22,707 nucleotides of DNA from Promethearchaeota archaeon. GTDB taxonomy: Archaea; Asgardarchaeota; Lokiarchaeia; Sigyniarchaeales; SOKP01. Under the pieces are notes generated by a model that worked only from the letters and a program-made list of their open reading frames with translations, was not told where the DNA came from and made no database searches. Position numbers and translations under genes: made by a program. Each line of letters starts with the position of its first letter. The first letter of the stretch is position 1. The DNA lies in the NCBI GenBank assembly GCA_019058015.1, contig JAHLWH010000076.1:1-22707 (forward strand). Reading direction: 5' to 3'. Below, piece after piece: positions 3,600 to 22,707 of this stretch.

Positions 3600-5467
3600 T
3601 TATATCCTCAGTCGTAATAACTCTAGACTTATATATAATTGTAGAATCCCACTCACACTAATTGCTATACCAAATAAGGTTAGAACCGTTATGGATAGAG
3701 ATTCCGCAGTCTGTTGAGAAATGAGTGTATTACCTAATAAGATCTGTTCAAGGGTTATAATGTCTGTACTTATTAAACCTATAACGAAAAAAACAAATAA
3801 GCCGCCAATTAATTGAAGAATTCCTATAATATAATTAACATTGTGAATTAGTTTTAATCTGCTTTCCTTAAGTTCAATAATTCGGCCATCACCAATGGCA
3901 ATCATATCTCGATTAACCTTCTTAATGTAATAATAAACCATTTCTCTAAGTGGTATTACATCAAGAAGAACCGTTCCAAAAGTAAAAATACCAATATATA
4001 TTAAAATTCGAAGAATTATCTCTCTAAATATTACATTAAATCCATCAATTGTAGAATTAATAATAGCAAAATTAGCAATAATCCAAATAAAAACGCCCAA
4101 AACGCAAGTGCTTAAAAATTTCAAACCAGATATTGTTAAAACTATTGAATTCCGATCAGCAATCGTAAGTACATAATAACTAATACCAATAATAAAAATG
4201 ATAACACCTAACAATATTGCTGCCATTGATAATGTAAATGCAAAAATTAAACACATAGAACCAACTAAAATAGGTAGATATGGAAAGAAAGGGGCTTTAA
4301 AGGGACGATCTAATTCTTTTCTTTTATTTCTTAACATTACTGCTCCAAAGTTTATAAAAGCTAATCCAAAAAAGAAAATAAAACTAGTCATTTCTGCGGC
4401 AAATCCTAGATCCGTAAAAACGGTGATTAAGAGCGATAAAAACCCAGTAATAATCAATGCATATATTGGCATTCCAGTCTTTTTATTTACTTTTTTTAAT
4501 CTCTTAGAGACATAGTTATCTCTAGCTAAAGCAAATAAAATACTTACTGCAGAACCTAACGCAGCATTCATAGCAATTAAAGTTGAAATAATTGCTGCAA
4601 TCCCCATAAGAATGAATCCAAAGGGACCCAATATTTTATTGAGAATATCTGCTAACAGAACAACGGATTGACTAATATCTTCTATATCATTTCCTATATT
4701 TACCAATACAACAAAAGTAATTAATAAATAAAGTAAGAGAGTGATAACAATAGCAATGATATTAACCCTCGGAATGTTTTTAGAAGGATTTTTCAAATCT
4801 GAACTTAATATGCTAAATTGGCGACAATAGAAGCAAAACAGATAAATAAAAATGAAAATGTAAATATTACTCCAAAAATATTCGTTCCCGATAAAAGATA
4901 ATTAATATCGAAATCAGTTGCATTAGTAATCGGTGCGATTACAATTCCAGAAATAATAAAAATTACTAAAAATAGGATAAGTAGAATTGTTAATGATATT
5001 AATGTTTTGGTTGCTCTCTGGCTTGTCTTAAATACTATGAATAATATAAAAAAAATAGATAATATGCTAATAAATATCGAGTAATCCTTTAAAATTGGAA
5101 AAAAAGTATATATAACAATAGCAAATGCTTGTGCAGAAAACGAACATGCAGCCATATTTGCTATCCAAAGGAAAAAACCAATTATAAATGCCAAAAAACC
5201 CCCTAACGCTTCTTTACTAAAGGTATATCCCCCACCTCCTGAAATTCGGAGGCTAGTTGCAAGTTCAGAGAAATTTAAAGCAGTTAAAAATATTAATACA
5301 CCACCTAAAATTAAACTGATTAAAACACCAGGACCTGCCCTATCTATTGCTGGCCCCAAGAGAGTAAATATTGACCCTCCAATACCACAACCGACCCCAT
5401 ATAAAATTCCACCCGAAATTCCAGTTGATCTTTCAGGAACAATTATTTTTTCTTCAGAATCACTCAA
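3600..5467 (-). pseudogene. APC-family amino acid permease split by a 1-nt frameshift (pseudogene or sequencing error)
   Basis: 5' part has GCGIGGSIF and ALNFSELATSLRISGGGGYTF; 3' part has KNPSKNIP, ALARD and RPFKAPFFP. One extra T in GCA TAT TAA (about 4808) gives a continuous ...AYLSSDLKNPSKNIP. Confidence 0.85.
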
Positions 5468-10533: not shown

Positions 10534-13497
10534 TTAAGAGAATAAGAGATCTAATCGTCGTGTTATTTTTTTTAAATTTTTTAGAGAGTCTCGAAAATAG
10601 ATATCTAGCTTTATTTCATGAGCATCCATTGCTTGGTTAAATTCATTATTATCTCGATCAATTCTTAAAATGTATTTAAATTTTTTAACAGAACCTGGTG
10701 GAAATTCTTCAATACTAAAAAAATTAGGATTTGGATTTTCCTTTAAGAATGATAAATATTTTGGGTGGGTAAACCGAATAATAACATCTTTTAACGTGTA
10801 ATTTGTTGGATTTGTGATTTTAAAATTAAAAAAAACTTTATTTCCAAGGAGTTTAATGTTTTTAAATAATAATAGGTTATTCTCATCTGATGAATAAATC
10901 TGCTTTTTTGAAGAGTAAAGCTTATTTTCAACAATTTTTCCTTGAATTTTATTATTTCTAATTAATTCGAAAATTTTACTCTTTAGAATTTTGTTATCCA
11001 TATTAAATTTAGTTGCTATAAGCTCAATTGAAATAGGATTCATAATTTCTAAAAATTTATTTAATCGCCCAATAAATAAACGATCTTGAGTTGTTCTATT
11101 AAAGTTTTTTAACTTTTTTTCTAATATACTTTTTGAATTACTCCAATTTTCTAAATAAGGTCTGAATTGACTTATCACAGGTTCTTGGTATTTAAATTGC
11201 TTATTTTCAAAGATCAAATGATTAAGTTCATAATCAACATCTTGAAAAAAAAATTTTATTCTTTCTGAAGTTAAATTTTCAATATTTATTATTTTTTCAA
11301 AATCACTACTTTTAAGGAGTGTTTGAACTTTAATATGAAGATCTTCGAACTCTGAATAAAATTCATTAATTTTCTCAATTGCTTGAGAAGTTATATTTTG
11401 AATTTGATGTTCAATAAGTTGAGAAGCTATTAAAGAATTTAGGAAAACATTTGAAAATTTACTTTTAATATTTGTTACACTAACAGGCATCTCTTGTTTA
11501 ATATCTTCCTTATCTAGATTAATAACTATATCCTTAAAAGCCAATAAATTCTCATTTATATTATATAATTCTTTTTGGACGTCTAATTTAACATCAGTCC
11601 ATTGGGTTATTAAATCATTAAATAAATCTTCAAACTCAAGATTTTCTAATATCATCTGCCCAATTTCAGATTCAAATTTGAACAATTTAGAACGAACTGC
11701 TGTGATTTGATTAAATTTTTCCTTTAAATCAGAGGAGTGAAATGAAGATAAATCCTTATGAGTTTTTAGTAGATTATTTATTTTTTTATCAAAATCCTTT
11801 ATGAGATCAAATTCAATTGATAAGATCTTAATGCGATCTTCAATATTTCTTATTTTATCATTTAATTTTAATTTATAATTATCTTTTTTCTTCTCTAATT
11901 TCTTAAACTCATATTCTTTTATTATACTTATTTCTTCAATTAGTTGAATTTTAATATCTTCCCATTCTTCCAAGATATCAACAACAAGATGTTTAACATT
12001 AAAAGATTTAATTTCATTATCAAAATCATTTAATTGCTTAAGAAAATCTTTAAAACTCTCATTTAACTCGATTTCGGCCTTGTCAAATTGGAGGTTCCTA
12101 ATATGAGAACTTATTGTTTCTCTAAACTCACTTGGATAATTAGTAAATCTTAAAAAATTATAATTAAAAAACTCAACATCCTGTTGAACTTTATCAATTT
12201 CAGTATCTAGATTTTCATAAGCATCTTTTAATTGGAGCAAATTAATTTCAATTTCTTCTTTTACTTCTACGTCTTTTTCTTTTAAAAGTTTTTTTTTTAA
12301 TTCAGAACCAATTAAAACGTAAATTTTCTCGCTTTTTAAAATTAATGCAATATCCGTTAAGAGATTAACTAAATTCTTACGTTTTCTCCACAATTTTGAC
12401 TCAAATTTATTGAATAATTTTAATATTTCATTTTCAATATCATTTTCATTCTCATCATATAAGTTGGTTAAAACCCTAGAGATTGTAGTTCTTATTTTTA
12501 GTAAAGGATTGTTTAATTCTTCAAAGAAGGAAGTAGATACACTTTCAATATTATCTTGTCCTAAGTAGAATAAAGTTTCTTCAACATTGTTTTTTAGTTC
12601 ATTATTATCAGTATTCAACTTGGCAATTAAATTGGAAAATAATTCATCAAAATGGATTTTTGCAATCTTTATAAGTGAATTTATTGTTTTAGATTGAATA
12701 ACATAACTATGATCCCCTAATAAACTAATTAATTGTGGAATTAAATCTTTAATTTCTGAGGAATATATATTACAAATTTCCCCAATAATATCAATAATAG
12801 TTTCTCTAACTCGCCAATCATTATCCTTTAATAAATTCTGAATTAATTCAAAAAACTCTTCCTTAGGTATTATAGATGAAAAACCTAAAAGTTTGAAAAT
12901 CTTTCCAGCAAATTCTCTTATTTCTTCGTTTTCCTCTCTAAAATTATTTACAACACTTTTTATAAGAGCATCGGTTTTTTTGATTTTAGAAGGATTTTCG
13001 GTTAATATCTTAACTATTCTTTTTGATGTTAATAATTTTACCCTCCATTCTACATCATTCAATTTTGTTATGAAATCTGAGCCAATTTCTGATAAATCTA
13101 AATGAGTAGAATTAATCAATGTCCCTAAAATTTTAACACTTAAGCTTCTTACAAAAGAATCCTTATCCCATAATCTTTCCTTAATAGGATCAAGCAAATC
13201 TAAAAGATCATTGGGCCGATATATACTAATCTTATAAAGAATTTCTAATGTAACTAGCCTTATCCATTCATCAGAATAATTGATAAATGGTTCAATTTCT
13301 CTTATAATTTTAGAAACCACAGAAGGATTCTTATCGCAAATTAAGTTGAGCAGTTCTAAAGATTTATATGTAGTATCTTTATCTGATTTTGTTTCTGCAT
13401 AATTAATTAAATCAATAAGATCATCAGTAGCATTTTCATATTTCTTCTGTCCTATCTTTATAGCAATTTTTCCGTACTCAACCATTTTGTATTCCAA
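10534..13497 (-). CDS. Large HEAT-repeat protein with helical repeats, a PCI-like winged helix and a C-terminal beta-sandwich
   Basis: Repeated L.D....VR HEAT motifs (DEWIR, DSFVR, EWRVK, DWRVR); ISIELIATKFNM...LIRNNKIQGKI; C-terminal FNFKITNPTNYTLKDVIIRF...IEEFPPGSVKKF. Confidence 0.8.
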   Translation of the reverse strand: MEYKMVEYGKIAIKIGQKKYENATDDLIDLINYAETKSDKDTTYKSLELLNLICDKNPSVVSKIIREIEPFINYSDEWIRLVTLEILYKISIYRPNDLLDLLDPIKERLWDKDSFVRSLSVKILGTLINSTHLDLSEIGSDFITKLNDVEWRVKLLTSKRIVKILTENPSKIKKTDALIKSVVNNFREENEEIREFAGKIFKLLGFSSIIPKEEFFELIQNLLKDNDWRVRETIIDIIGEICNIYSSEIKDLIPQLISLLGDHSYVIQSKTINSLIKIAKIHFDELFSNLIAKLNTDNNELKNNVEETLFYLGQDNIESVSTSFFEELNNPLLKIRTTISRVLTNLYDENENDIENEILKLFNKFESKLWRKRKNLVNLLTDIALILKSEKIYVLIGSELKKKLLKEKDVEVKEEIEINLLQLKDAYENLDTEIDKVQQDVEFFNYNFLRFTNYPSEFRETISSHIRNLQFDKAEIELNESFKDFLKQLNDFDNEIKSFNVKHLVVDILEEWEDIKIQLIEEISIIKEYEFKKLEKKKDNYKLKLNDKIRNIEDRIKILSIEFDLIKDFDKKINNLLKTHKDLSSFHSSDLKEKFNQITAVRSKLFKFESEIGQMILENLEFEDLFNDLITQWTDVKLDVQKELYNINENLLAFKDIVINLDKEDIKQEMPVSVTNIKSKFSNVFLNSLIASQLIEHQIQNITSQAIEKINEFYSEFEDLHIKVQTLLKSSDFEKIINIENLTSERIKFFFQDVDYELNHLIFENKQFKYQEPVISQFRPYLENWSNSKSILEKKLKNFNRTTQDRLFIGRLNKFLEIMNPISIELIATKFNMDNKILKSKIFELIRNNKIQGKIVENKLYSSKKQIYSSDENNLLLFKNIKLLGNKVFFNFKITNPTNYTLKDVIIRFTHPKYLSFLKENPNPNFFSIEEFPPGSVKKFKYILRIDRDNNEFNQAMDAHEIKLDIYFRDSLKNLKKITRRLDLLFS

Positions 13498-13853: not shown

Positions 13854-13955
13854 GGGAAGGTAGTCTAGCTTGGTATGATACTATAAAGATATTCTTTTTA
13901 GCAAAAATCTAGCTTTGGGAGTTAGAGGTCGGGGGTTCGAATCCCTCCCTTCCCA
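13854..13955 (+). tRNA. tRNA-Pro(UGG) with a 28-nt non-canonical intron (best fit 13880-13907, position 25/26); CCA not encoded
   Basis: Acceptor GGGAAGG/CCTTCCC + A; anticodon arm CTAGC-TTTGGGA-GTTAG; T arm GGGGG-TTCGAAT-CCCTC; removing 28 nt gives a 74-nt cloverleaf. Confidence 0.95.
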
Positions 13956-14053: not shown

Positions 14054-14629
14054 ATGAAAAAAGAACTAATTATAATAAAATTAAACCCAATAATAGACAC
14101 GATTATTGAGAATCTTCAGTTAGATTTAATAAAACTATTTAACGGAATTTTTGAAGAAATACATATTATCGAGAATTCTAAAGGGATTTTAAAAAAATAT
14201 TACAATAAACATAGAAATCAACATAATGCTTCGAGAATTTTGGATGATGTGAAAGAGATTGGAATAAAAGAAGAATATTACAGGGTATTAGCTATAACAT
14301 TAGAGGATTTATATACTGAAAGGTTGAATTTTGTTTTTGGTGTCGCTTTTATGCCATCGCAATCAAAAATTCCAGAGAGTGTTTCGGCTATTATTTCCTT
14401 TAAAAGATTAAAAAAAGAATTTTATAATCTACCGAAAGATGATGTACTTTTTAGAGATAGAATAATCAAGGAGGCAGCTCATGAGTTAGGGCATACTCTA
14501 GGACTTAAACACTGTACAAATAAATGTGTTATGCGATTTTCTAACTGTATTGATGATACTGATGAAAAACCGGCAAGATTTTGTAATAATTGCCTTAATA
14601 AAATTAAGAAAAATTATGGTTTAGGTTGA
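14054..14629 (+). CDS. amzA: Archaemetzincin (M54 Zn metalloprotease)
   Basis: HELGHTLGLKHC.NKCVM.FSN...D.K...FC..C; LNFVFG. Confidence 0.95.
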   Translation: MKKELIIIKLNPIIDTIIENLQLDLIKLFNGIFEEIHIIENSKGILKKYYNKHRNQHNASRILDDVKEIGIKEEYYRVLAITLEDLYTERLNFVFGVAFMPSQSKIPESVSAIISFKRLKKEFYNLPKDDVLFRDRIIKEAAHELGHTLGLKHCTNKCVMRFSNCIDDTDEKPARFCNNCLNKIKKNYGLG

Positions 14630-14732: not shown

Positions 14733-15632
14733 ATGAAAGATTTAATACAATATTTAAAGCAAAGGAAATTCATTAAATCAAAGAAAGTAGAGAAAGCCTT
14801 TAGGGAGGTTCCATTTACAAATTTTGTACCTAAAGATCAAGTTGAACGATTTTTATTTGATACACCAGTGATTTTCCCCCGTTTAGGGAGAAATATCTCA
14901 GCTCCACATATGAATGCTATTCTATTAGAACTTTTAGATTTAGACTATGATGATCGGTTGTTAATTATCGGTTCAAAATTGGGATATATTGGAGCCTTAG
15001 CCAGTAAAATTATTACAGATGGATTTATTTCAATTGTTGATGCAAATTCTCTAGTTGTACAACAAACTATAAAAAATTTAGAGAGAATTGAGTTAGATAA
15101 AATGATTAAAGTCCAAAATGCACAACCCCTTGAAGGAGATATTGAGAATTCTCCTTGGGATAGGATTATAATAACTGCAAGTATAAAAGAGATTTCATTA
15201 GATTTATTAGCTCAATTAAAAGTTGGTGGGTTCATTTTCGCCCCAGTAGGTGATTTACATCAACAAGAATTATTGCAATATTTTCGACAAAATCTCAGTT
15301 TGAATAAAAAAGATTTCCTCAAAAAAGTTTGGGGTTCTGTTGTATTTGGTCCATTAGATACAAGTCTTGACACTAGTGAGGTTTTAGAAGAAGATTTGAT
15401 AGATTCAAAGGAATTTTCCTCTGAATTTCATGAAGGTTTAAGAACTACAGAGGATTTAACTTTTTTTTGTCCAAATTGTCAATTTAAATTTATTCAATTG
15501 CCTCTTTCTTTAAAATCCACCGAAAAAAAGATAAGTGTGAATTATAAGATTGAATGTCCTAACTGTAGGAAAAAATTTAATTTACGTGCTAAGTTGAATA
15601 AAAATGGAGATTTAGAAATAAATATAGAATAG
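14733..15632 (+). CDS. pcm: Protein-L-isoaspartate O-methyltransferase-like protein with a C-terminal zinc ribbon
   Basis: V..AF..VP...FVP, ISAPHM, PWDRIIITA, QLKVGG...APVG, V.FGPL; SAM motif I is degenerate; two CPNC motifs in the tail. Confidence 0.8.
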   Translation: MKDLIQYLKQRKFIKSKKVEKAFREVPFTNFVPKDQVERFLFDTPVIFPRLGRNISAPHMNAILLELLDLDYDDRLLIIGSKLGYIGALASKIITDGFISIVDANSLVVQQTIKNLERIELDKMIKVQNAQPLEGDIENSPWDRIIITASIKEISLDLLAQLKVGGFIFAPVGDLHQQELLQYFRQNLSLNKKDFLKKVWGSVVFGPLDTSLDTSEVLEEDLIDSKEFSSEFHEGLRTTEDLTFFCPNCQFKFIQLPLSLKSTEKKISVNYKIECPNCRKKFNLRAKLNKNGDLEINIE

Positions 15633-16823: not shown

Positions 16824-17951
16824 TTAAGTAAACAGTGAACTTATTTTAATACTTTTTTCTTCCTTTTGAGTTTCTTTTGTTTTTGATATCCCTTTATTTT
16901 TTAATTTCTCCCATAGAAAATCATGCAATTGTAATTTCTCTATTGTTCTTCCCTCTTTATAGAAATCAATACCACACAGAATACTTGATAATTTTATAAT
17001 TGAATCAATTAACGGAGTTTCTAGATGGAGATATTTACCTAAAGAAGCAACGGGTACAAGCCCGTTTGGAACATCTTCAGTAAAATATCTAGTTATCAAA
17101 TGATTAGGTGCAACTATATTTTCATATGCCTTAACTTTTTTTATCGAATCAAAAATTGAATTGGCTTTTATACCATATGTTTTTTCTGCCCATTTATGAT
17201 ATCTTAAGAATTTTATCCCTAATTTCTGGAATATATAACTAATTTCCAATTCAATATTCTCGAGAACTTCACAAATACGAGGTGTTGCTCCTTCACTATA
17301 AAACAAGAATTCTTTACCTATATCCATAAAGCCCGCATTAAATAAAGAAATCGCTGGATGTAAAAGCATCCCCGTGTTATTTAAGGTTATCTCTAAGTAA
17401 TCACCTACAGGTGATAATTGAGGAAAAACATTTTTTATTGAATTATAAGGAAAATAAGTAAATATTTCTGGATAAGTAGAATAATTAACTGAATTTTTTA
17501 TTTTTAATATATTTACTTTATTTCCAGGTAATTCTCTTGATGTAAAGAGAAGAGTTTGGGTTTCACCAACAATATTGTGGGAAAAGCGCCTTTTTTTTTC
17601 TATTACTTTCATAAATTCTACAGATCCAAATGTTCTTCCTGGATTTAATAAGATAATTTGATCTTTTGATAAGTAAGGTGCCATCTTTTCAGCAATAGAC
17701 TTGTGAGCAAAAGCTGGAATTACCACCATTATAACATCCGCATCTTTTATAGCAAATTCAATATCTTGGGTAACTCTATTAATTGGAAAAAATCCTTCTA
17801 ACTCTCCTTTAGCTACTATTCCTTTCTTTTTCTTGATTTCATGTATTCTTGAAAAAGATCGATTATAAAGTGAAACTGGATATCCCTTTGATGAGATATA
17901 AGCAGCAAACGCTCGACCTCCAGAACCTGCACCTATCACGCAAAATCTCAT
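16824..17951 (-). CDS. NAD(P)-dependent opine (octopine/nopaline) dehydrogenase family protein
   Basis: VIGAGSGG Rossmann motif, LNPGRT, ETQTL, N.G.LLHP, FY.EG, RYFTEDVP.GL; ATGA overlap with the upstream gene. Confidence 0.92.
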   Translation of the reverse strand: MRFCVIGAGSGGRAFAAYISSKGYPVSLYNRSFSRIHEIKKKKGIVAKGELEGFFPINRVTQDIEFAIKDADVIMVVIPAFAHKSIAEKMAPYLSKDQIILLNPGRTFGSVEFMKVIEKKRRFSHNIVGETQTLLFTSRELPGNKVNILKIKNSVNYSTYPEIFTYFPYNSIKNVFPQLSPVGDYLEITLNNTGMLLHPAISLFNAGFMDIGKEFLFYSEGATPRICEVLENIELEISYIFQKLGIKFLRYHKWAEKTYGIKANSIFDSIKKVKAYENIVAPNHLITRYFTEDVPNGLVPVASLGKYLHLETPLIDSIIKLSSILCGIDFYKEGRTIEKLQLHDFLWEKLKNKGISKTKETQKEEKSIKISSLFT

Positions 17952-19702
17952 TGAGCAATCACCTTATTATATTTTAGTTCCCTATAAAAATTATTATCAA
18001 GTAAAAATTTATCAGGATTGCTCTCAATAATTCTTTTAATCCTTTCTATCTCATCTAATTTGCTATTTATTTTATCATCCCAGGAATAACATGCTCCATC
18101 AATTATTTTTGTTTTAATCTGCCCTAAGGCAAATGGATTGTTAATCAGATGAGGAGCATCAAAAATGCCATATTTTACGACTCGTGTTAATACCTTATAG
18201 TTTATCCATGCATTATCACGTTCTTTCTCCGATCTTACTAAACGGGGAATTGTATTGACAATATATTGAGCTTGTTTTATTAATTCTTCTTTTCTTCTCT
18301 TTATTCTATCATCAATAATATTAATTTTACTCGAATATACTCGATTTATAACTTGATCTACAATATTACAACTTTCTATTATATCCTCGGGAAGTGCAGC
18401 ATGACTAGATTCACTAAAACTAACTACATGTACAATATCAGGTTTTAAAGTTAGTTGTATTAATGTAGCTGTTGCTAATTGTCCTTTTGCTTTGTTTAAA
18501 TTTAATGGAAAACTCGCTAATCCAGTTCTTACCTGTCTAATTATGGAAAATGATTCATCGGATAAAGTATGAAGAAGTTCATCTTTTGCTAATATTTTTG
18601 CGAGATCCATTTCAAAAGAAGTTGATGGTGGTGTATTAAACATGTACTGTGCAATAAAATGTCTAATGCCCAATTTTTTCGCAATTATACCACATAGATA
18701 CATATCTGCAACTACAATTGCATCTGGTGCATCTCTAAGACTCCAATGGTGAGGATCATTAATCTCCACGGGAATGTTGTTTTCTCCATGCCATTTTATC
18801 GCCTCTAAGTGTTGTTTTATTGAATCCTCTAGTGTCAAAGGGCCTCTCCCATCCATTTGATTAAACCAGAAAATAGGAATTGCAGCCCAAGCATTCTCAA
18901 TCGTCTTTCTATATAATTTTGCTAATTTAATAAAATCTCTTGTTCCCGCATAAATCCGCAACAATGGGAGATTACCTCGTAATCTTGCTTGATGTAATTT
19001 TTGAAAATCCTCTTCACACCTCAATGGAACACCACCGGCGCCGATTAATCCTTTAACTTGATCCTCTGGATGAAAATAATTAGATTGAGTATTTTGATCG
19101 GGCGCGATAGAAATAACATCCACAACTTCTTTGTTTGCAATTTTTTTTATCCCTTCTACTGTCTCCCTGAAACTTGGTAAACCAAAATGAGCTCGGATTA
19201 TCGGATACGGTTTTTTCCATTTTATTCGAGAAATTAAATCCATTGGAATTTTTAATTTCTCTTTAACACTATCTTTTTCATTTTTCAAAATTGATAATAA
19301 TTTATATTTTGATTCTTCCCCTACAAAGTATTCTTCAAATTTATTAAACTCTTTCGCAACTTTAACAACCTCTGGAGTTCCCGCAAAAAATAATCTTGGA
19401 GATTTTTCTTGTATTTTATTATATTTTTTGAAGAAATCATCAAGTAAAGGTCTGACTGTTGAGGGAGTTAAGCGATAACTTATTCCTACAATATCCGGTT
19501 TAAATTTTTTAATTTCGTATATTAATTTTGATATAGAAGTTGCGGGTCCTAAAAATTTACAATTAAAACCTAATTGAGTTGCAATATTAATAAAATTATA
19601 TGTACCTACAACATGAACGCATTGTCCAATACTTGCAGTTAATATCTTTTTTCTTTTTTTACTATTTAATTTAAAATCTTTTATATTTTTCACAATAATC
19701 AC
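17948..19702 (-). CDS. Cobalamin-binding domain protein with a large, probably TIM-barrel, catalytic region; function unknown
   Basis: N-terminal SIGQCVHVVG (DxHxxG with Cys for Asp), FLGPA, PDIVGISY; downstream RAHFGLP, HHWSLRDAPD, QYMFNTP, HVVSFSE; GTG start. Confidence 0.85.
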   Translation of the reverse strand: MIIVKNIKDFKLNSKKRKKILTASIGQCVHVVGTYNFINIATQLGFNCKFLGPATSISKLIYEIKKFKPDIVGISYRLTPSTVRPLLDDFFKKYNKIQEKSPRLFFAGTPEVVKVAKEFNKFEEYFVGEESKYKLLSILKNEKDSVKEKLKIPMDLISRIKWKKPYPIIRAHFGLPSFRETVEGIKKIANKEVVDVISIAPDQNTQSNYFHPEDQVKGLIGAGGVPLRCEEDFQKLHQARLRGNLPLLRIYAGTRDFIKLAKLYRKTIENAWAAIPIFWFNQMDGRGPLTLEDSIKQHLEAIKWHGENNIPVEINDPHHWSLRDAPDAIVVADMYLCGIIAKKLGIRHFIAQYMFNTPPSTSFEMDLAKILAKDELLHTLSDESFSIIRQVRTGLASFPLNLNKAKGQLATATLIQLTLKPDIVHVVSFSESSHAALPEDIIESCNIVDQVINRVYSSKINIIDDRIKRRKEELIKQAQYIVNTIPRLVRSEKERDNAWINYKVLTRVVKYGIFDAPHLINNPFALGQIKTKIIDGACYSWDDKINSKLDEIERIKRIIESNPDKFLLDNNFYRELKYNKVIAQ

Positions 19703-19710
19703 TTCTCAAA

Positions 19711-19898
19711 GTCTTATAGAAGGCATTAAGAGTGAAACAATTTTAGTTTCTTGTTTCAATCCGTAAAAAGTGCAAATATTCACAATTTACTAAGTTGTAT
19801 GAATTTGAGATATTAAAAAATGGGTTCATAATTAGACCACAATTTAAGGAAATAATAATATTTTGTAATCGATATTTTTATGCCTCAATCTACCAGAC
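19711..19898. ncRNA. Putative structured RNA element upstream of the B12 gene (leader or antisense RNA)
   Basis: Long-range pairing 19711-19726 with 19880-19898 (GTCT/AGAC, TAGA/TCTA, AGGCAT/ATGCCT) enclosing hairpins 19733-19758 (8 bp) and 19798-19830. Confidence 0.5.
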
Positions 19899-19929
19899 AT
19901 CAAAATAAATATATAAATTTATTGGTTCC

Positions 19930-19940
19930 TTTATATATAA
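19930..19940 (-). promoter_or_regulatory. Candidate TATA box for the B12/opine operon
   Basis: TTATATATAAA on the minus strand, about 30 nt upstream of the 5' arm of the structured element. Confidence 0.4.
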
Positions 19941-20311
19941 CTAGTTCAAATTTTTCATTAAATAGATATTAAGTTATATAAATTAAAAGATCATTATTTT
20001 AAAACTAGATATAGTTTTCTATTGTGATTTCAATCAATATATAAGAGAAATTATTAATTCAGTAAATTGAATTATATTAATAGGGTAATATCTATTAACT
20101 TTTAAACCTTTTAATGACATTAAATTATTATATAGTAATTATAAACTAAACATTATTAAAACTGGTAAAAATTCTATCATATAAATATGAATTTAAATTT
20201 AAAAAATAACGTTTTTTGATTATTCTACTTCATAATTAAGAGTTTGGACTTTTCTAGAAAAAAGAAATAAAGTTAAAATTGATTCTAACTTGATTAAAAA
20301 AGATTTGAAAA

Positions 20312-21286
20312 TTATTCTTTTTTCTCTCTCACAATAAAATATATGGATATGATAATTATGAATAACCCGATTAGATGAAATAAATTGAAAATCTCTCCAA
20401 GAAATATTGCAAAAAATGCGGTAACTATGGGAGTGGGAGATCCGAGGACTGATGCTTTAGATACATCTAAACATGTGAGAACTTTATACCAACAAAATAG
20501 GCCAACACCATAAATTGTTCCCATAGCCAGAAAATAAAAAATATTAATGGGATTAAATAATAAATTAAAATTTTCTAAAGGAAATAATAAAAAATATGTG
20601 CTGAATAAGATTATTCCACTAAGCGCATTTCTTGAAAAAACCAATTGGATTGGTGTTGCTTCATTTTTATCGAAAACTTTTTTTGTGATGGCGTGTCCTA
20701 ACATCCATATGGCTACTGTTATTAACATTAATATTACACCTAAATTAAATTCGAGCAAATTAAATAAACCTTGTGTAATAGCAAGAGTCACACCAAATAA
20801 TAGAATAAAAGAAAATATCACTTGAGATTTTTTAATAGGTTCTTTATTAATTATGTATCCAAATAATAAAGAAAAAATCACTGTTGTTTTTTGAGCAAGA
20901 GAACCATTAATTGCTCCAGCTAGTTGATATGATAGGAAAAATAAAATTTGAGCAATTCCAAAATTGATACCAAGATATACTAAAAAGAGTTTATGCTTTT
21001 TCCAGCCGTTTAAAAGAGACTCGATTTCAATTGTTTTTTTTGGATCCTCTATTTTCGAAATTTTGAGATTTCTGCGTTCTATCATTATGATGGGGAAAAA
21101 TATGATGGATTCAATAATACAAGTCATTGCAGCAAATATATATGAGTCAAGCTCAGCAGGTCTTGAATTTGCGATTATTGGTTGGAGTCCTACTAAGATA
21201 ACCATCGCAATTGCATAGAAAAGACCTTTTTTTAAATTTTCATTTGGCAAGATATTAAAAAAAAAGAGAAAAGAAATAAAAATCAT
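20312..21286 (-). CDS. EamA/DMT family transporter
   Basis: About 10 TM helices in two repeats; LAGAINGSLAQKTTVIFSLLFGY...KE and WYKVL..LDVSKASVL...TPI...LGE; the start may be the downstream TTG (LPNEN). Confidence 0.9.
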   Translation of the reverse strand: MIFISFLFFFNILPNENLKKGLFYAIAMVILVGLQPIIANSRPAELDSYIFAAMTCIIESIIFFPIIMIERRNLKISKIEDPKKTIEIESLLNGWKKHKLFLVYLGINFGIAQILFFLSYQLAGAINGSLAQKTTVIFSLLFGYIINKEPIKKSQVIFSFILLFGVTLAITQGLFNLLEFNLGVILMLITVAIWMLGHAITKKVFDKNEATPIQLVFSRNALSGIILFSTYFLLFPLENFNLLFNPINIFYFLAMGTIYGVGLFCWYKVLTCLDVSKASVLGSPTPIVTAFFAIFLGEIFNLFHLIGLFIIIISIYFIVREKKE

Positions 21287-22707
21287 TTGGAATAAGTTCC
21301 AAATTTAGGGAATTTTCTCAATTGGGTCGAATCGAATATGGGGCCATCTTTACAAACTGAAACATTATTTTTTTCCCCAATACAGCATGAACCGCACAGA
21401 CCAACCCCACATTTCATTTTTCTTTCTAAAGATGCCTGAATATTAATTTTTTTTAATTCAGCAATTTCTAATACTCGTTTCATCATAATTTCGGGACCAC
21501 AAGTGAGTATTAAATCTATGTCGTTATTATCTATGATATCCTCGATTATGTCCGTAACAAAACATTTTTTTCCAATTGAGTCATCATCAGTTGTATATTG
21601 GGTATTAGGGATTTGTAGTGTTATTCTATTACCAAAGATTAGTGATGATTTATCCTTAGCTCCAATTGCAGCAAATAAATTTTTATTATTTTTCTTTAAA
21701 GACTCAATAACTGAAGTAAGTGCAGCAATTCCCATTCCACCACCAACTATAAGAATATTGGAAGCGTCTTCATAGAACCAAGAATTTCCATATGGGCCTC
21801 TAATCCCAATTGTGTCTCCTTCTTTCATGTGGAGTAATTTTTCTGTTCCTTCGCCAATTTTTTGAACAGTAATTTCGACTAAGTTTCCATCGATGTTAGA
21901 AATGGACATCGGTAGAAAATCCACATCCGGAAGCCACAATACAACAAATTGACCTGGTTTATAAGTTTTTGCAATTCTTTCGTTTCTAACAATAAAACTT
22001 TTAATCTCTGGAGAAAATTCTACAACAGATTCAATTTTTACTATGTCAGTTTTGTTTCGAGTTATATCTAGAACAATTTCCTCATCCTCTTTGTCGAGGG
22101 ATTTTTTTTCTATTAATCCCATACTTACTGTTAAATCAAATATCCTTTTCCCCCGAGAATTTCTTATAATTACCGTATTCCATCCTTCTTCGCTACCGAA
22201 CTCACCTACAGAAATATCTGCAAATGAGGCGGTATAGTCAGAACAAGAGAAACAAGCTTTTCTAATTGCTTTATCATATAAATAATAAAGTGGAATTTCT
22301 TTTTTTTCAGATTTCGTAGAAATAATCATTTTAAAATTATTCTTATCCGTTTCTATCTTTTCAATTTCACTTAGAATTAAATTATATTCATTGAAACAAT
22401 CTGTTAATTGTTGATTATGGAAAGTTCCGAAACAAAATGTCCCAATTGTTAAAGAGACTAAATCAAAAGCTTCAAAATCGAATCGAGGGTGGTTTTGTAT
22501 TTTCCGTAAAGCCTGAATTTGGCAACCATTACCTACAACAGCAATATCAGAAAACTCTTGATTTATTGCATCCCCCACAATTGAAAGGGTAGGACTTTGG
22601 CTTGGTTCATATCCCATTCCATTAAATAAATCTTGTATATTTTTAACAATGAAAGGAAAGGGTCTAAAATTCTCGTTTTTTCTCATTGTAATTACGCAAT
22701 CAATTAA
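21283..22707 (-). CDS. FrhB-like (F420-binding) domain fused to PyrK-like dihydroorotate dehydrogenase electron-transfer subunit; 5' end lies beyond the window
   Basis: Frame open to the window edge (LIDCVITM...). FrhB motifs AVVGNGCQIQA, IGTFC.GTF, C..C.DYTA.FADISVG; PyrK motifs PGQF, RGPYGN, GGGMG, CGPE.M, MKCGVGLCGSC...VCKDGPIF. Confidence 0.9.
   Translation of the reverse strand, partial: LIDCVITMRKNENFRPFPFIVKNIQDLFNGMGYEPSQSPTLSIVGDAINQEFSDIAVVGNGCQIQALRKIQNHPRFDFEAFDLVSLTIGTFCFGTFHNQQLTDCFNEYNLILSEIEKIETDKNNFKMIISTKSEKKEIPLYYLYDKAIRKACFSCSDYTASFADISVGEFGSEEGWNTVIIRNSRGKRIFDLTVSMGLIEKKSLDKEDEEIVLDITRNKTDIVKIESVVEFSPEIKSFIVRNERIAKTYKPGQFVVLWLPDVDFLPMSISNIDGNLVEITVQKIGEGTEKLLHMKEGDTIGIRGPYGNSWFYEDASNILIVGGGMGIAALTSVIESLKKNNKNLFAAIGAKDKSSLIFGNRITLQIPNTQYTTDDDSIGKKCFVTDIIEDIIDNNDIDLILTCGPEIMMKRVLEIAELKKINIQASLERKMKCGVGLCGSCCIGEKNNVSVCKDGPIFDSTQLRKFPKFGTYSK

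Follow-up and report, generated by a model that had tools for sequence, protein, structure and literature searches.

A conserved gene pair of a predicted B12-dependent mutase and an opine dehydrogenase in Asgard archaea and bacteria, with a possible role in making an osmolyte-like modified amino acid

We analysed a 22,707-nucleotide stretch of DNA from a Promethearchaeota archaeon (contig JAHLWH010000076.1 of assembly GCA_019058015.1; hereafter the window), which encodes on its minus strand a single-chain protein of 584 amino acids (aa) with the architecture of a B12-dependent mutase and, overlapping it, an NAD(P)-dependent opine dehydrogenase (ODH). Both genes belong to a single conserved enzymatic module and are kept together well beyond chance. 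We tentatively favour, with confidence somewhat short of even, a reading in which the pair would make an osmolyte-like modified amino acid by means of an adenosylcobalamin (AdoCbl) mutase and the ODH. The elements of the locus, with the evidence for each, are as follows.

17948–19702, minus strand: B12-type mutase, 584 aa, single chain, GlmS-like Rossmann domain and GlmE-like TIM barrel (open reading frame (ORF), Pfam, AlphaFold2 model, Foldseek, VIA-align)
19325–19648, minus strand: B12-binding Rossmann domain, about residues 19–126 (Pfam B12-binding over residues 19–81, family profile matches, strands and helices in the model)
19604–19621, minus strand: CVHVVG, a CxHxxG variant of the DxHxxG cobalt-ligand motif, residues 28–33 (alignment to DLHDIG of 4jgi)
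18029–19252, minus strand: TIM-barrel catalytic domain and C-terminal helical part, residues 151–558 (VIA-align against 1cb7_B, 43–440)
17948–17951, minus strand: ATGA stop/start overlap of mutase and ODH (sequence)
16824–17951, minus strand: NAD(P)-dependent ODH, CENDH-like, 375 aa (Octopine_DH, match to 1bg6)
19703–20311, minus strand: AT-rich spacer upstream of the mutase gene, 609 bp, with the presumed promoter inside (sequence)
20312–21286, minus strand: EamA/DMT transporter, weakly associated with the mutase–ODH pair (Pfam EamA, 9.2e-33)

The first-pass annotation of this DNA had placed the 584-aa protein and the ODH on the minus strand with an ATGA overlap, which was confirmed from the ORFs and the sequence: at the gene junction the minus strand reads ...CAATGAGA..., in which the mutase TGA and the ODH ATG have four bases in common. 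The G+C content of the window is 23–33%. The host assembly, of 3.84 Mb and 94% complete (a completeness that applies to all searches of the host genome below), has one copy of the mutase gene, and the nearest protein relatives come from source-named Promethearchaeota/Lokiarchaeota and other Asgard archaea.

Loci with relatives of the mutase were taken from a scan of the Asgard phylum (30 loci; 201 sampled genomes) and from a species-level genome collection, in which at least 491 stretches were found and 80 loci kept; the two sources partly overlap (one contig is both L038 and L063), so that the locus counts are not independent. The ODH gene adjoins the mutase gene in 28/30 loci of the Asgard scan, and both misses end at a contig edge. 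In the species-level set it is present in 76/80 loci, at most 160 bp from the mutase gene in 74 of them; of the four loci without it, L058 and L104 break off downstream at a contig end, L084 has only 197 bases upstream, and L083 is a real exception. Seventy-seven of the 201 Asgard genomes carry the mutase gene: both genes are present in 74, only the mutase gene in three (G099, G195, and G068, in all of which it stands at a contig end or is partial), only the ODH gene in five, and neither in 119. The coupling of the two genes suggested beforehand from the window is thus upheld, with 74 Asgard genomes holding both against eight holding one. Gene order varies by clade while adjacency is kept, and the pairwise identities of mutases and ODHs correlate with r = 0.885 (2080 pairs, 65 loci) and, below 60% mutase identity, with r = 0.58, to which shared species history contributes. 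Carriers among the Bacillota include Caldanaerobacter subterraneus, Thermoanaerobacter thermocopriae, Tepidanaerobacter, Tissierella, Sporanaerobacter, Fervidicola, and Maledivibacter; the others belong to Asgard archaea, Chloroflexota/Anaerolineae (Bellilinea), Aminicenantes, Poribacteria, Sumerlaeota, and Actinomycetota.

Some loci depart from the simple two-gene arrangement. In an Anaerolineaceae locus (L073:5395–8160, plus strand) mutase and ODH share one open frame of about 920 aa without a stop; this fusion may be natural or may stem from an error in sequencing. Two other apparent ODH–mutase fusions, with open frames of 836 aa (G166) and 875 aa (G133), were rejected, each being two same-frame genes split by a stop. 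The Asgard locus L038 (G104:C23) contains two complete mutase–ODH pairs about 9 kb apart, whose mutases (contig positions 4299–5978 and 14983–16692) share 68% and 63% identity with the query.

By its domains and catalytic residues, the ODH is predicted to be a member of the CENDH-type opine dehydrogenase family. It matches Octopine_DH (PF02317; 3.7e-35, 121.6 bits against a Pfam cut-off of 30) and NAD_Gly3P_dh_N (5.1e-11), with G7, G9, G11, and G12 conserved, and is a full-length homologue of Arthrobacter N-(1-D-carboxyethyl)-L-norvaline dehydrogenase (CENDH; 1bg6, E 2.3e-70, residues 3–343). H198, R288, and D293 are invariant in 26/26 ODH partners from all clades, and we take them, by the offset of the 1bg6 alignment, to be the equivalents of the CENDH catalytic residues His202, Arg292, and Asp297.

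An AlphaFold2 model of the mutase, built on the alignment of a family profile of 25 mutase members (A1), had a pLDDT of 88.5 and a pTM of 0.84. Comparison of this model with GlmE, KamD, and OraE, as the first-pass annotation had proposed, placed GlmE closest. The top Foldseek matches were GlmE structures 6h9e_B and 1cb7_B at E ~1e-16 (best 1.1e-16), followed by ornithine 4,5-aminomutase, lysine 5,6-aminomutase, and methylmalonyl-CoA mutases (MCM), and VIA-align gave a Z score of 30.1 to GlmE 1cb7_B (root-mean-square deviation 3.1, 373 residues aligned, model 151–558 against 43–440), 28.7 to KamD, 26.1 to OraE, and about 20 to MCM. The invariant residues of A1 include R170, D195, D202, Y251, D284, and E313, with R249, R286, R323, and D327 near-invariant; together these residues suggest a charged, polar substrate. 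The earlier description of this region as rich in His, Asp, and Glu was overstated, with 2.9% H, 6.3% D, and 5.9% E in residues 151–560.

Residues were related to GlmE by an hhalign alignment of A1 (316 columns, E 0.006, probability 6%), and all of the following equivalences share the weakness of that alignment. The GlmE reference was the E. coli O157 gene from an annotated record, with numbering matched to 6h9e_B and assumed to be the same for 1cb7_B. The RHGTPD strand of GlmE falls on YAGTRD, and Glu330, presumably the ribose-binding residue, falls on E431, which is at least 90% conserved in the family. In the residues that we take to form the GlmE glutamate site (R66, R100, R149, E171, and Y181; the positions fit the 6h9e_B sequence), R100 maps to Q206, R149 to Y251, and E171 to A273, while R66 lies outside the aligned part and R170 as its equivalent is a guess. 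Since three of the five alignable residues of this presumed site are replaced in the 6%-probability alignment, the substrate would not be held as glutamate is in GlmE. The replaced residues and the lack of a methylaspartase domain in the host genome indicate that the window mutase is probably not glutamate mutase proper and that its substrate pocket would differ. No match to MAAL_C (methylaspartate ammonia-lyase) was found in the host genome, with a control that matched in 11 genomes, and the PF06368 cut-off was reached in 0/5 bacterial carrier genomes. Canonical GlmE (PF06368, E 1e-30 or better) was found in none of the 201 Asgard genomes, a result that is uninformative because the control was also silent.

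The N-terminal domain was compared with corrinoid proteins by means of the same profile. A1 matches 4jgi (E 3.1e-6) and 7xcn_M and, more weakly, OraE, the B12 mutase subunit 2yxb, and GlmS 1be1; in the profile alignment the C/H/G of the family fall on the D/H/G of DxHxxG in solved corrinoid proteins, with the ligand His kept. C28, H30, and G33 are at least 90% conserved in A1. CVHVVG is the sole CxHxxG of the window mutase, in which DxHxxG and CxxxCxxC are absent, and the B12-binding domain with this motif that had been described from the window alone was borne out across the family, with C.H..G in 84/84 and CxxxCxxC in 0/84 of the mutase ORFs collected. There was no Pfam match to the Radical_SAM domain and no NCBIfam match of any kind in the mutase. 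The only near-invariant Lys of A1 is K369, in the barrel, and the B12 domain has no invariant or near-invariant Lys.

One reading of this domain takes it to be vestigial or to bear methylcobalamin, the protein then being a methyltransferase ('methionine synthase') or a non-radical enzyme. Many members carry the NCBI name 'methionine synthase', by sequence the Rossmann domain best matches corrinoid proteins of methyltransferases, and the motif Asp is lost. We nevertheless consider this reading extremely unlikely: no homocysteine-, pterin-, or MT-type domains were found with Pfam or NCBIfam, the barrel is far nearer to AdoCbl isomerases than to MetH (Foldseek E 1.4e-5 for the module 3bol_B against 1.1e-16 for GlmE), and MutL occurs in fusions and as a neighbour. 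Because no methionine-synthase domain is found in Pfam or NCBIfam, the name (e.g., P0018, P0021, and P0028, and in many Asgard genomes) is probably an annotation artefact that is spreading into metabolic reconstructions.

All 30 longer homologues (1152–1251 aa) are fusions of the mutase to MutL/GlmL (PF13941), 32–38% identical to the query over 70–98%, and in loci L077 and L081 the gene immediately before the mutase is a separate MutL (E 2.9e-175 and 5.2e-167). That relatives are fused to or stand beside MutL, the glutamate-mutase reactivase, supports radical AdoCbl chemistry. The host genome encodes a CobA-type adenosyltransferase (183.7 bits) and three MCM-type mutases. Cobalamin use by the mutase is thus supported indirectly, by the alignment of the Rossmann domain to corrinoid proteins, the barrel resembling GlmE and the aminomutases, the MutL association, and the CobA and MCM of the host; judged from these sequence features, the form used is most likely AdoCbl. 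The MutL-fused proteins (P0274–P0303) are a metagenomic sister clade, two of which are NCBI-named Anaerolineae/Anaerolineales.

The product side of the favoured reading draws on gene regulation in bacteria and on the genes that accompany the pair. Rfam places a c-di-AMP riboswitch (RF00379) immediately 5' of the operon in six of nine bacterial loci tested, at 98–117 bits (gathering score 38). A covariance model (R1) built from these six leaders and run on 84 sources finds the riboswitch in 26 of them (26/63 non-Loki), always on the operon strand and just upstream; nine of nine further R1 matches that were re-tested were confirmed by Rfam, which brings the Rfam-confirmed loci to 15. It occurs in 23/27 Bacillota, 1/28 Chloroflexota, 1/1 Sumerlaeota, and 1/1 unclassified bacterial loci, and in none of the Poribacteria (0/2), Aminicenantes (0/2), Actinomycetota (0/1), and Thorarchaeota (0/1) loci or the Asgard sources including the window (0/21). 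Independently of the riboswitch, genes for PII-like c-di-AMP receptors (PF06153, CdAMP_rec) stand inside or close to the operon in five Chloroflexota loci. Riboswitches of this class silence their genes at high c-di-AMP and serve mainly K+ and compatible-solute homeostasis.

Neighbouring genes were counted in 63 non-Loki loci and 21 Asgard loci or sources, with 91 same-strand, closely spaced neighbours entering the Pfam tally. In this analysis, which had been suggested as a check on the first reading of the window, the ODH is the constant partner, mutase and ODH are the only universal genes of the loci, and a Ddl-like ligase, asparagine synthase (AsnB), and MFS transporters recur. The Ddl-like gene, of the D-Ala-D-Ala-ligase-family ATP-grasp type (7u56 at 2e-31), lies directly upstream in 15/63 non-Loki loci and, by neighbourhood clustering, in 0/21 Asgard loci, and one metagenomic mutase is fused to an ATP-grasp domain. 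Asparagine synthase is present in 5/63 non-Loki and 3/21 Asgard loci, and MFS transporters in four Asgard (Loki-type) loci. The operonic tally is led by Dala_Dala_lig_C (10), Asn_synthase (5), CdAMP_rec (5), MFS_1 (4), PmbA/TldD (3), and MutL (2). Along with the recurrent ligase and amidotransferase genes, the c-di-AMP riboswitch and receptors make biosynthesis of an osmolyte-like modified amino acid the favoured role. Of the three roles that the first-pass annotation had left side by side, the c-di-AMP links thus favour an osmolyte, and catabolism and a metallophore are less favoured.

The most complete operon among the loci, in a Sumerlaeota genome (L081:2630–8641, plus strand), begins with the c-di-AMP riboswitch, which is followed in this order by ODH, Ddl-like ligase, 4HBT-type thioesterase, MutL, and mutase. 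A gene of the TFIIB/TFB family (PF00382; 1.4e-35 for the L033 copy) lies beside or near the pair in 8/21 Asgard sources from three Asgard families (L033, L041, L042, L043, L046, L048, L050, and L051), and this TFB paralogue could be a dedicated transcription factor for the archaeal operon, where the riboswitch is absent.

The same ligase and riboswitch would also suit an unusual D- or branched amino acid or a dipeptide that mutase, ODH, and Ddl-like ligase would supply, controlled by c-di-AMP, to the cell envelope or a small peptide. Besides the ligase directly upstream in 15/63 loci, Lgt downstream in seven loci and PmbA/TldD neighbours in Aminicenantes loci agree with such a product, and c-di-AMP is tied to the cell wall. 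The ligase is, however, absent from 48/63 non-Loki loci, the Asgard pair is without it in all 21 loci, and Asgard archaea are, to our knowledge, not known to have peptidoglycan, so that we regard an envelope product as improbable.

Transport of a product was considered from the EamA gene upstream. It is co-directional with the pair, as had been stated before, but the suggested tie to the pair or its product is weak and confined to one genus: the gene lies 609 bp from the mutase start and overlaps by four bases the end of the FrhB/PyrK-like gene upstream of it, so that it looks like a member of the upstream unit, and among the 30 loci a homologue stands beside the pair only in the window and in its congener G040 (L001 and L002). 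Opine-type metallophores such as staphylopine and pseudopaline are known, and the ODH could finish such a chelator for export by an MFS or EamA pump, given its position beside EamA in the window and G040 or beside MFS in four Loki-type loci. We consider this very improbable, as the conserved neighbours include no nicotianamine-synthase-like or metal-uptake genes, the ODH is CENDH-like, EamA belongs with the upstream unit, and bacterial regulation is by c-di-AMP, with no metal regulator seen.

A catabolic role deserves more weight and is still unlikely in our judgement. The pair would then serve anaerobic amino-acid or opine fermentation, with the mutase moving a group, the ODH oxidising the C–N bond, and the 2-oxo acid passing to ferredoxin oxidoreductases and substrate-level phosphorylation. 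By record titles, carriers are anaerobic fermenters of sediments and digesters; transporters are often neighbours, KamD and OraE are close structural matches (see the Z scores above), and lysine 5,6- and ornithine 4,5-aminomutases are followed in their pathways by diamino-acid dehydrogenases. Tissierellia-type loci have ptb, a buk-like kinase, and a four-subunit 2-oxoacid:ferredoxin oxidoreductase just upstream (5–8/63 loci), but there the riboswitch lies between the oxidoreductase genes and the pair and marks the latter as a separate unit. Recurrent partners are ligases and amidotransferases of biosynthetic type, thiolases, cleavage enzymes, and ammonia-lyases are lacking among the conserved neighbours, MAAL_C is missing from the host genome, and a switch that is on at low c-di-AMP fits accumulation rather than breakdown. 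A glutamate-to-propionate route, drawn from the ptb–buk–oxidoreductase synteny of Tissierellia, was rejected as the main idea on the same two grounds, the separating riboswitch and the restriction of the synteny to 5–8/63 loci.

In the favoured biosynthetic reading, His30 of CxHxxG would ligate cobalt (base-off/His-on), and Co–C homolysis would yield the 5'-deoxyadenosyl radical, with Glu431 at the position of the ribose-binding Glu330 of GlmE. The radical would take a hydrogen from a polar substrate of amino-acid type in the barrel, leading to a 1,2 carbon-skeleton shift, and the ODH, through His198, Arg288, and Asp293, would make or break a C–N bond of the same metabolite with NAD(P)H. Either order of the steps may be envisaged: the mutase could act first, with its rearranged product condensed by the ODH with a 2-oxo acid, or the ODH could begin by forming an N-(dicarboxyalkyl) amino acid, on the arm of which the mutase would later act. 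The resulting amino-acid derivative would be metabolically inert and non-proteinogenic and would serve osmotic or potassium balance; in some bacteria it may be extended or amidated by the Ddl-like ligase and an AsnB-like amidotransferase; in Bacillota the operon would be on when c-di-AMP is low.

Several results weigh against this reading or parts of it. The Pfam B12-binding match to the mutase (residues 19–81) is sub-threshold at 28.2 bits against a cut-off of 32.1, and the Asp of DxHxxG is Cys in 84/84 mutase ORFs. Met_asp_mut_E (PF06368) also stays below its gathering score on the mutase (20.8 bits against 26.6, residues 325–489) and below the cut-off in the genome scan (18.7 bits), and the residue mapping to GlmE depends on the low-probability alignment given above. 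KamD and OraE score almost as high as GlmE in the structural comparison, and the reaction may, as far as the model goes, be an amino-group shift. No MutL and no PduO-type adenosyltransferase were found in the host genome. R1 gave no match in the 21 Asgard sources, the window included, the 609-bp leader of the window had no Rfam match at the gathering score, and no diadenylate cyclase domain was found in the host genome, so that an osmolyte role in the window archaeon would follow by orthology from bacteria only; c-di-AMP riboswitches also control some cell-wall genes. Finally, Asgard sequences fall among bacteria as two distinct groups (FastTree, midpoint root): the window's family f1, together with f2 and f5, groups with Poribacteria towards Chloroflexota, and f7, f12, f22, and a record from Thorarchaeota lie towards Bacillota/Aminicenantes. 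Such mixing with bacterial sequences points to the pair being passed between domains as a cassette.

A more specific and more doubtful proposal is an 'opine mutase' route, in which the AdoCbl mutase would rearrange the carbon skeleton of an N-carboxyalkyl amino acid or its precursor. The product would represent a new class of compatible or potassium-balancing solutes, switched by c-di-AMP in bacteria, and the genes would have passed as a two-gene cassette between Asgard archaea and anaerobic bacteria.

The remainder of the window contains further genes of note. The FrhB/PyrK-like gene (21283–22686, minus strand), whose end overlaps the start of the EamA gene, encodes a 467-aa fusion of an FrhB/FdhB C-terminal domain (4.1e-36) and a PyrK-like dihydroorotate-dehydrogenase electron-transfer subunit (NF000796, 1.2e-77). 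A 987-aa protein (10534–13497, minus strand) has HEAT repeats (1.5e-14) and a weak PCI match (1.3e-4), an architecture reminiscent of eukaryotic proteins. On the plus strand, an archaemetzincin gene (14054–14629; Peptidase_M54, 1.1e-28) adjoins a gene for a protein-isoaspartate methyltransferase with a C-terminal zinc-ribbon extension (14733–15632; PCMT, 9.6e-32). A borderline partial tRNA match at 13896–13947 (plus strand; Rfam 29.5 bits against a gathering score of 29, E 0.097, model positions 10–63) could reflect an archaeal tRNA that is split or carries an intron, or could be due to chance; ARAGORN found no tRNA in the window.

A family of this kind has been predicted before. Those portions of the paper by Zhang, Rodionov, Gelfand, and Gladyshev (2009, BMC Genomics 10:78; PMC2667541) that deal with it describe a novel B12-dependent family from 11 bacteria of four phyla and no archaea, with a distant N-terminal B12-binding domain. 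There a pfam02317 dehydrogenase is said to be 'always adjacent', with asparagine synthase and D-Ala:D-Ala ligase in the vicinity; B12 dependence is left as a prediction, and the authors call for experiments. Matched by this description and not by sequences, it appears to be the family of the window mutase, and our neighbourhood results independently reproduce the prediction as set out there. Relative to the same portions of that paper, the Asgard spread, GlmE-type fold, MutL fusions, changed active site, and c-di-AMP control are new. The first-pass annotation had known of no characterised enzyme of this type, and Pfam, NCBIfam, PDB, Atlas, and a full-text literature search bear this out; Atlas contains only 'putative cobalamin B12-binding' clusters.

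Few kinds of AdoCbl isomerase are known, and a new one would be rare. The family is widespread and widely mislabelled as methionine synthase, and its reaction, once worked out, would add a B12-dependent rearrangement and a role for bacterial and archaeal opine dehydrogenases, could reveal a solute new to the c-di-AMP osmoregulation network, and would correct Asgard metabolic reconstructions. Cultured carriers exist in Caldanaerobacter, Thermoanaerobacter, Tepidanaerobacter, and Bellilinea.

Among known systems, glutamate mutase GlmS/GlmE of Clostridium cochlearium (1cb7, 1ccw, 6h9e) is the best structural match, with which the window mutase shares the Rossmann B12 domain and TIM barrel, the GTxD strand motif and the position of Glu330 (both from the low-confidence alignment), and, in relatives, the association with MutL/GlmL. 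Unlike GlmS/GlmE, it is one chain of ~15% identity with an N-terminal B12 domain and CxHxxG in place of DxHxxG, and it is paired with an opine dehydrogenase in a genome without methylaspartase. Arthrobacter CENDH (1bg6) resembles the ODH over its full length, with the equivalents of its catalytic His, Arg, and Asp invariant, and we know of no link between CENDH and a B12 enzyme. KamDE and OraSE likewise combine a B12 Rossmann domain with a TIM barrel (Z 26–28.7), and their pathways continue from the mutase to an NAD(P) amine dehydrogenase. They need pyridoxal phosphate held by a lysine of the Rossmann domain; in A1 the B12 domain of the window family shows no invariant or near-invariant Lys, and the dehydrogenase families differ. 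Established osmolyte routes are those of AblA/AblB to N-epsilon-acetyl-beta-lysine, of glutamate 2,3-aminomutase to beta-glutamate, and of ATP-grasp enzyme and AsnO to N-acetylglutaminylglutamine amide. Their mutases use radical-SAM and not B12 chemistry, and none of these routes involves an opine dehydrogenase; their likeness to the pair lies in pathway logic only, in which a common amino acid is isomerised to a non-proteinogenic one, capped or amidated, and accumulated under osmotic stress.

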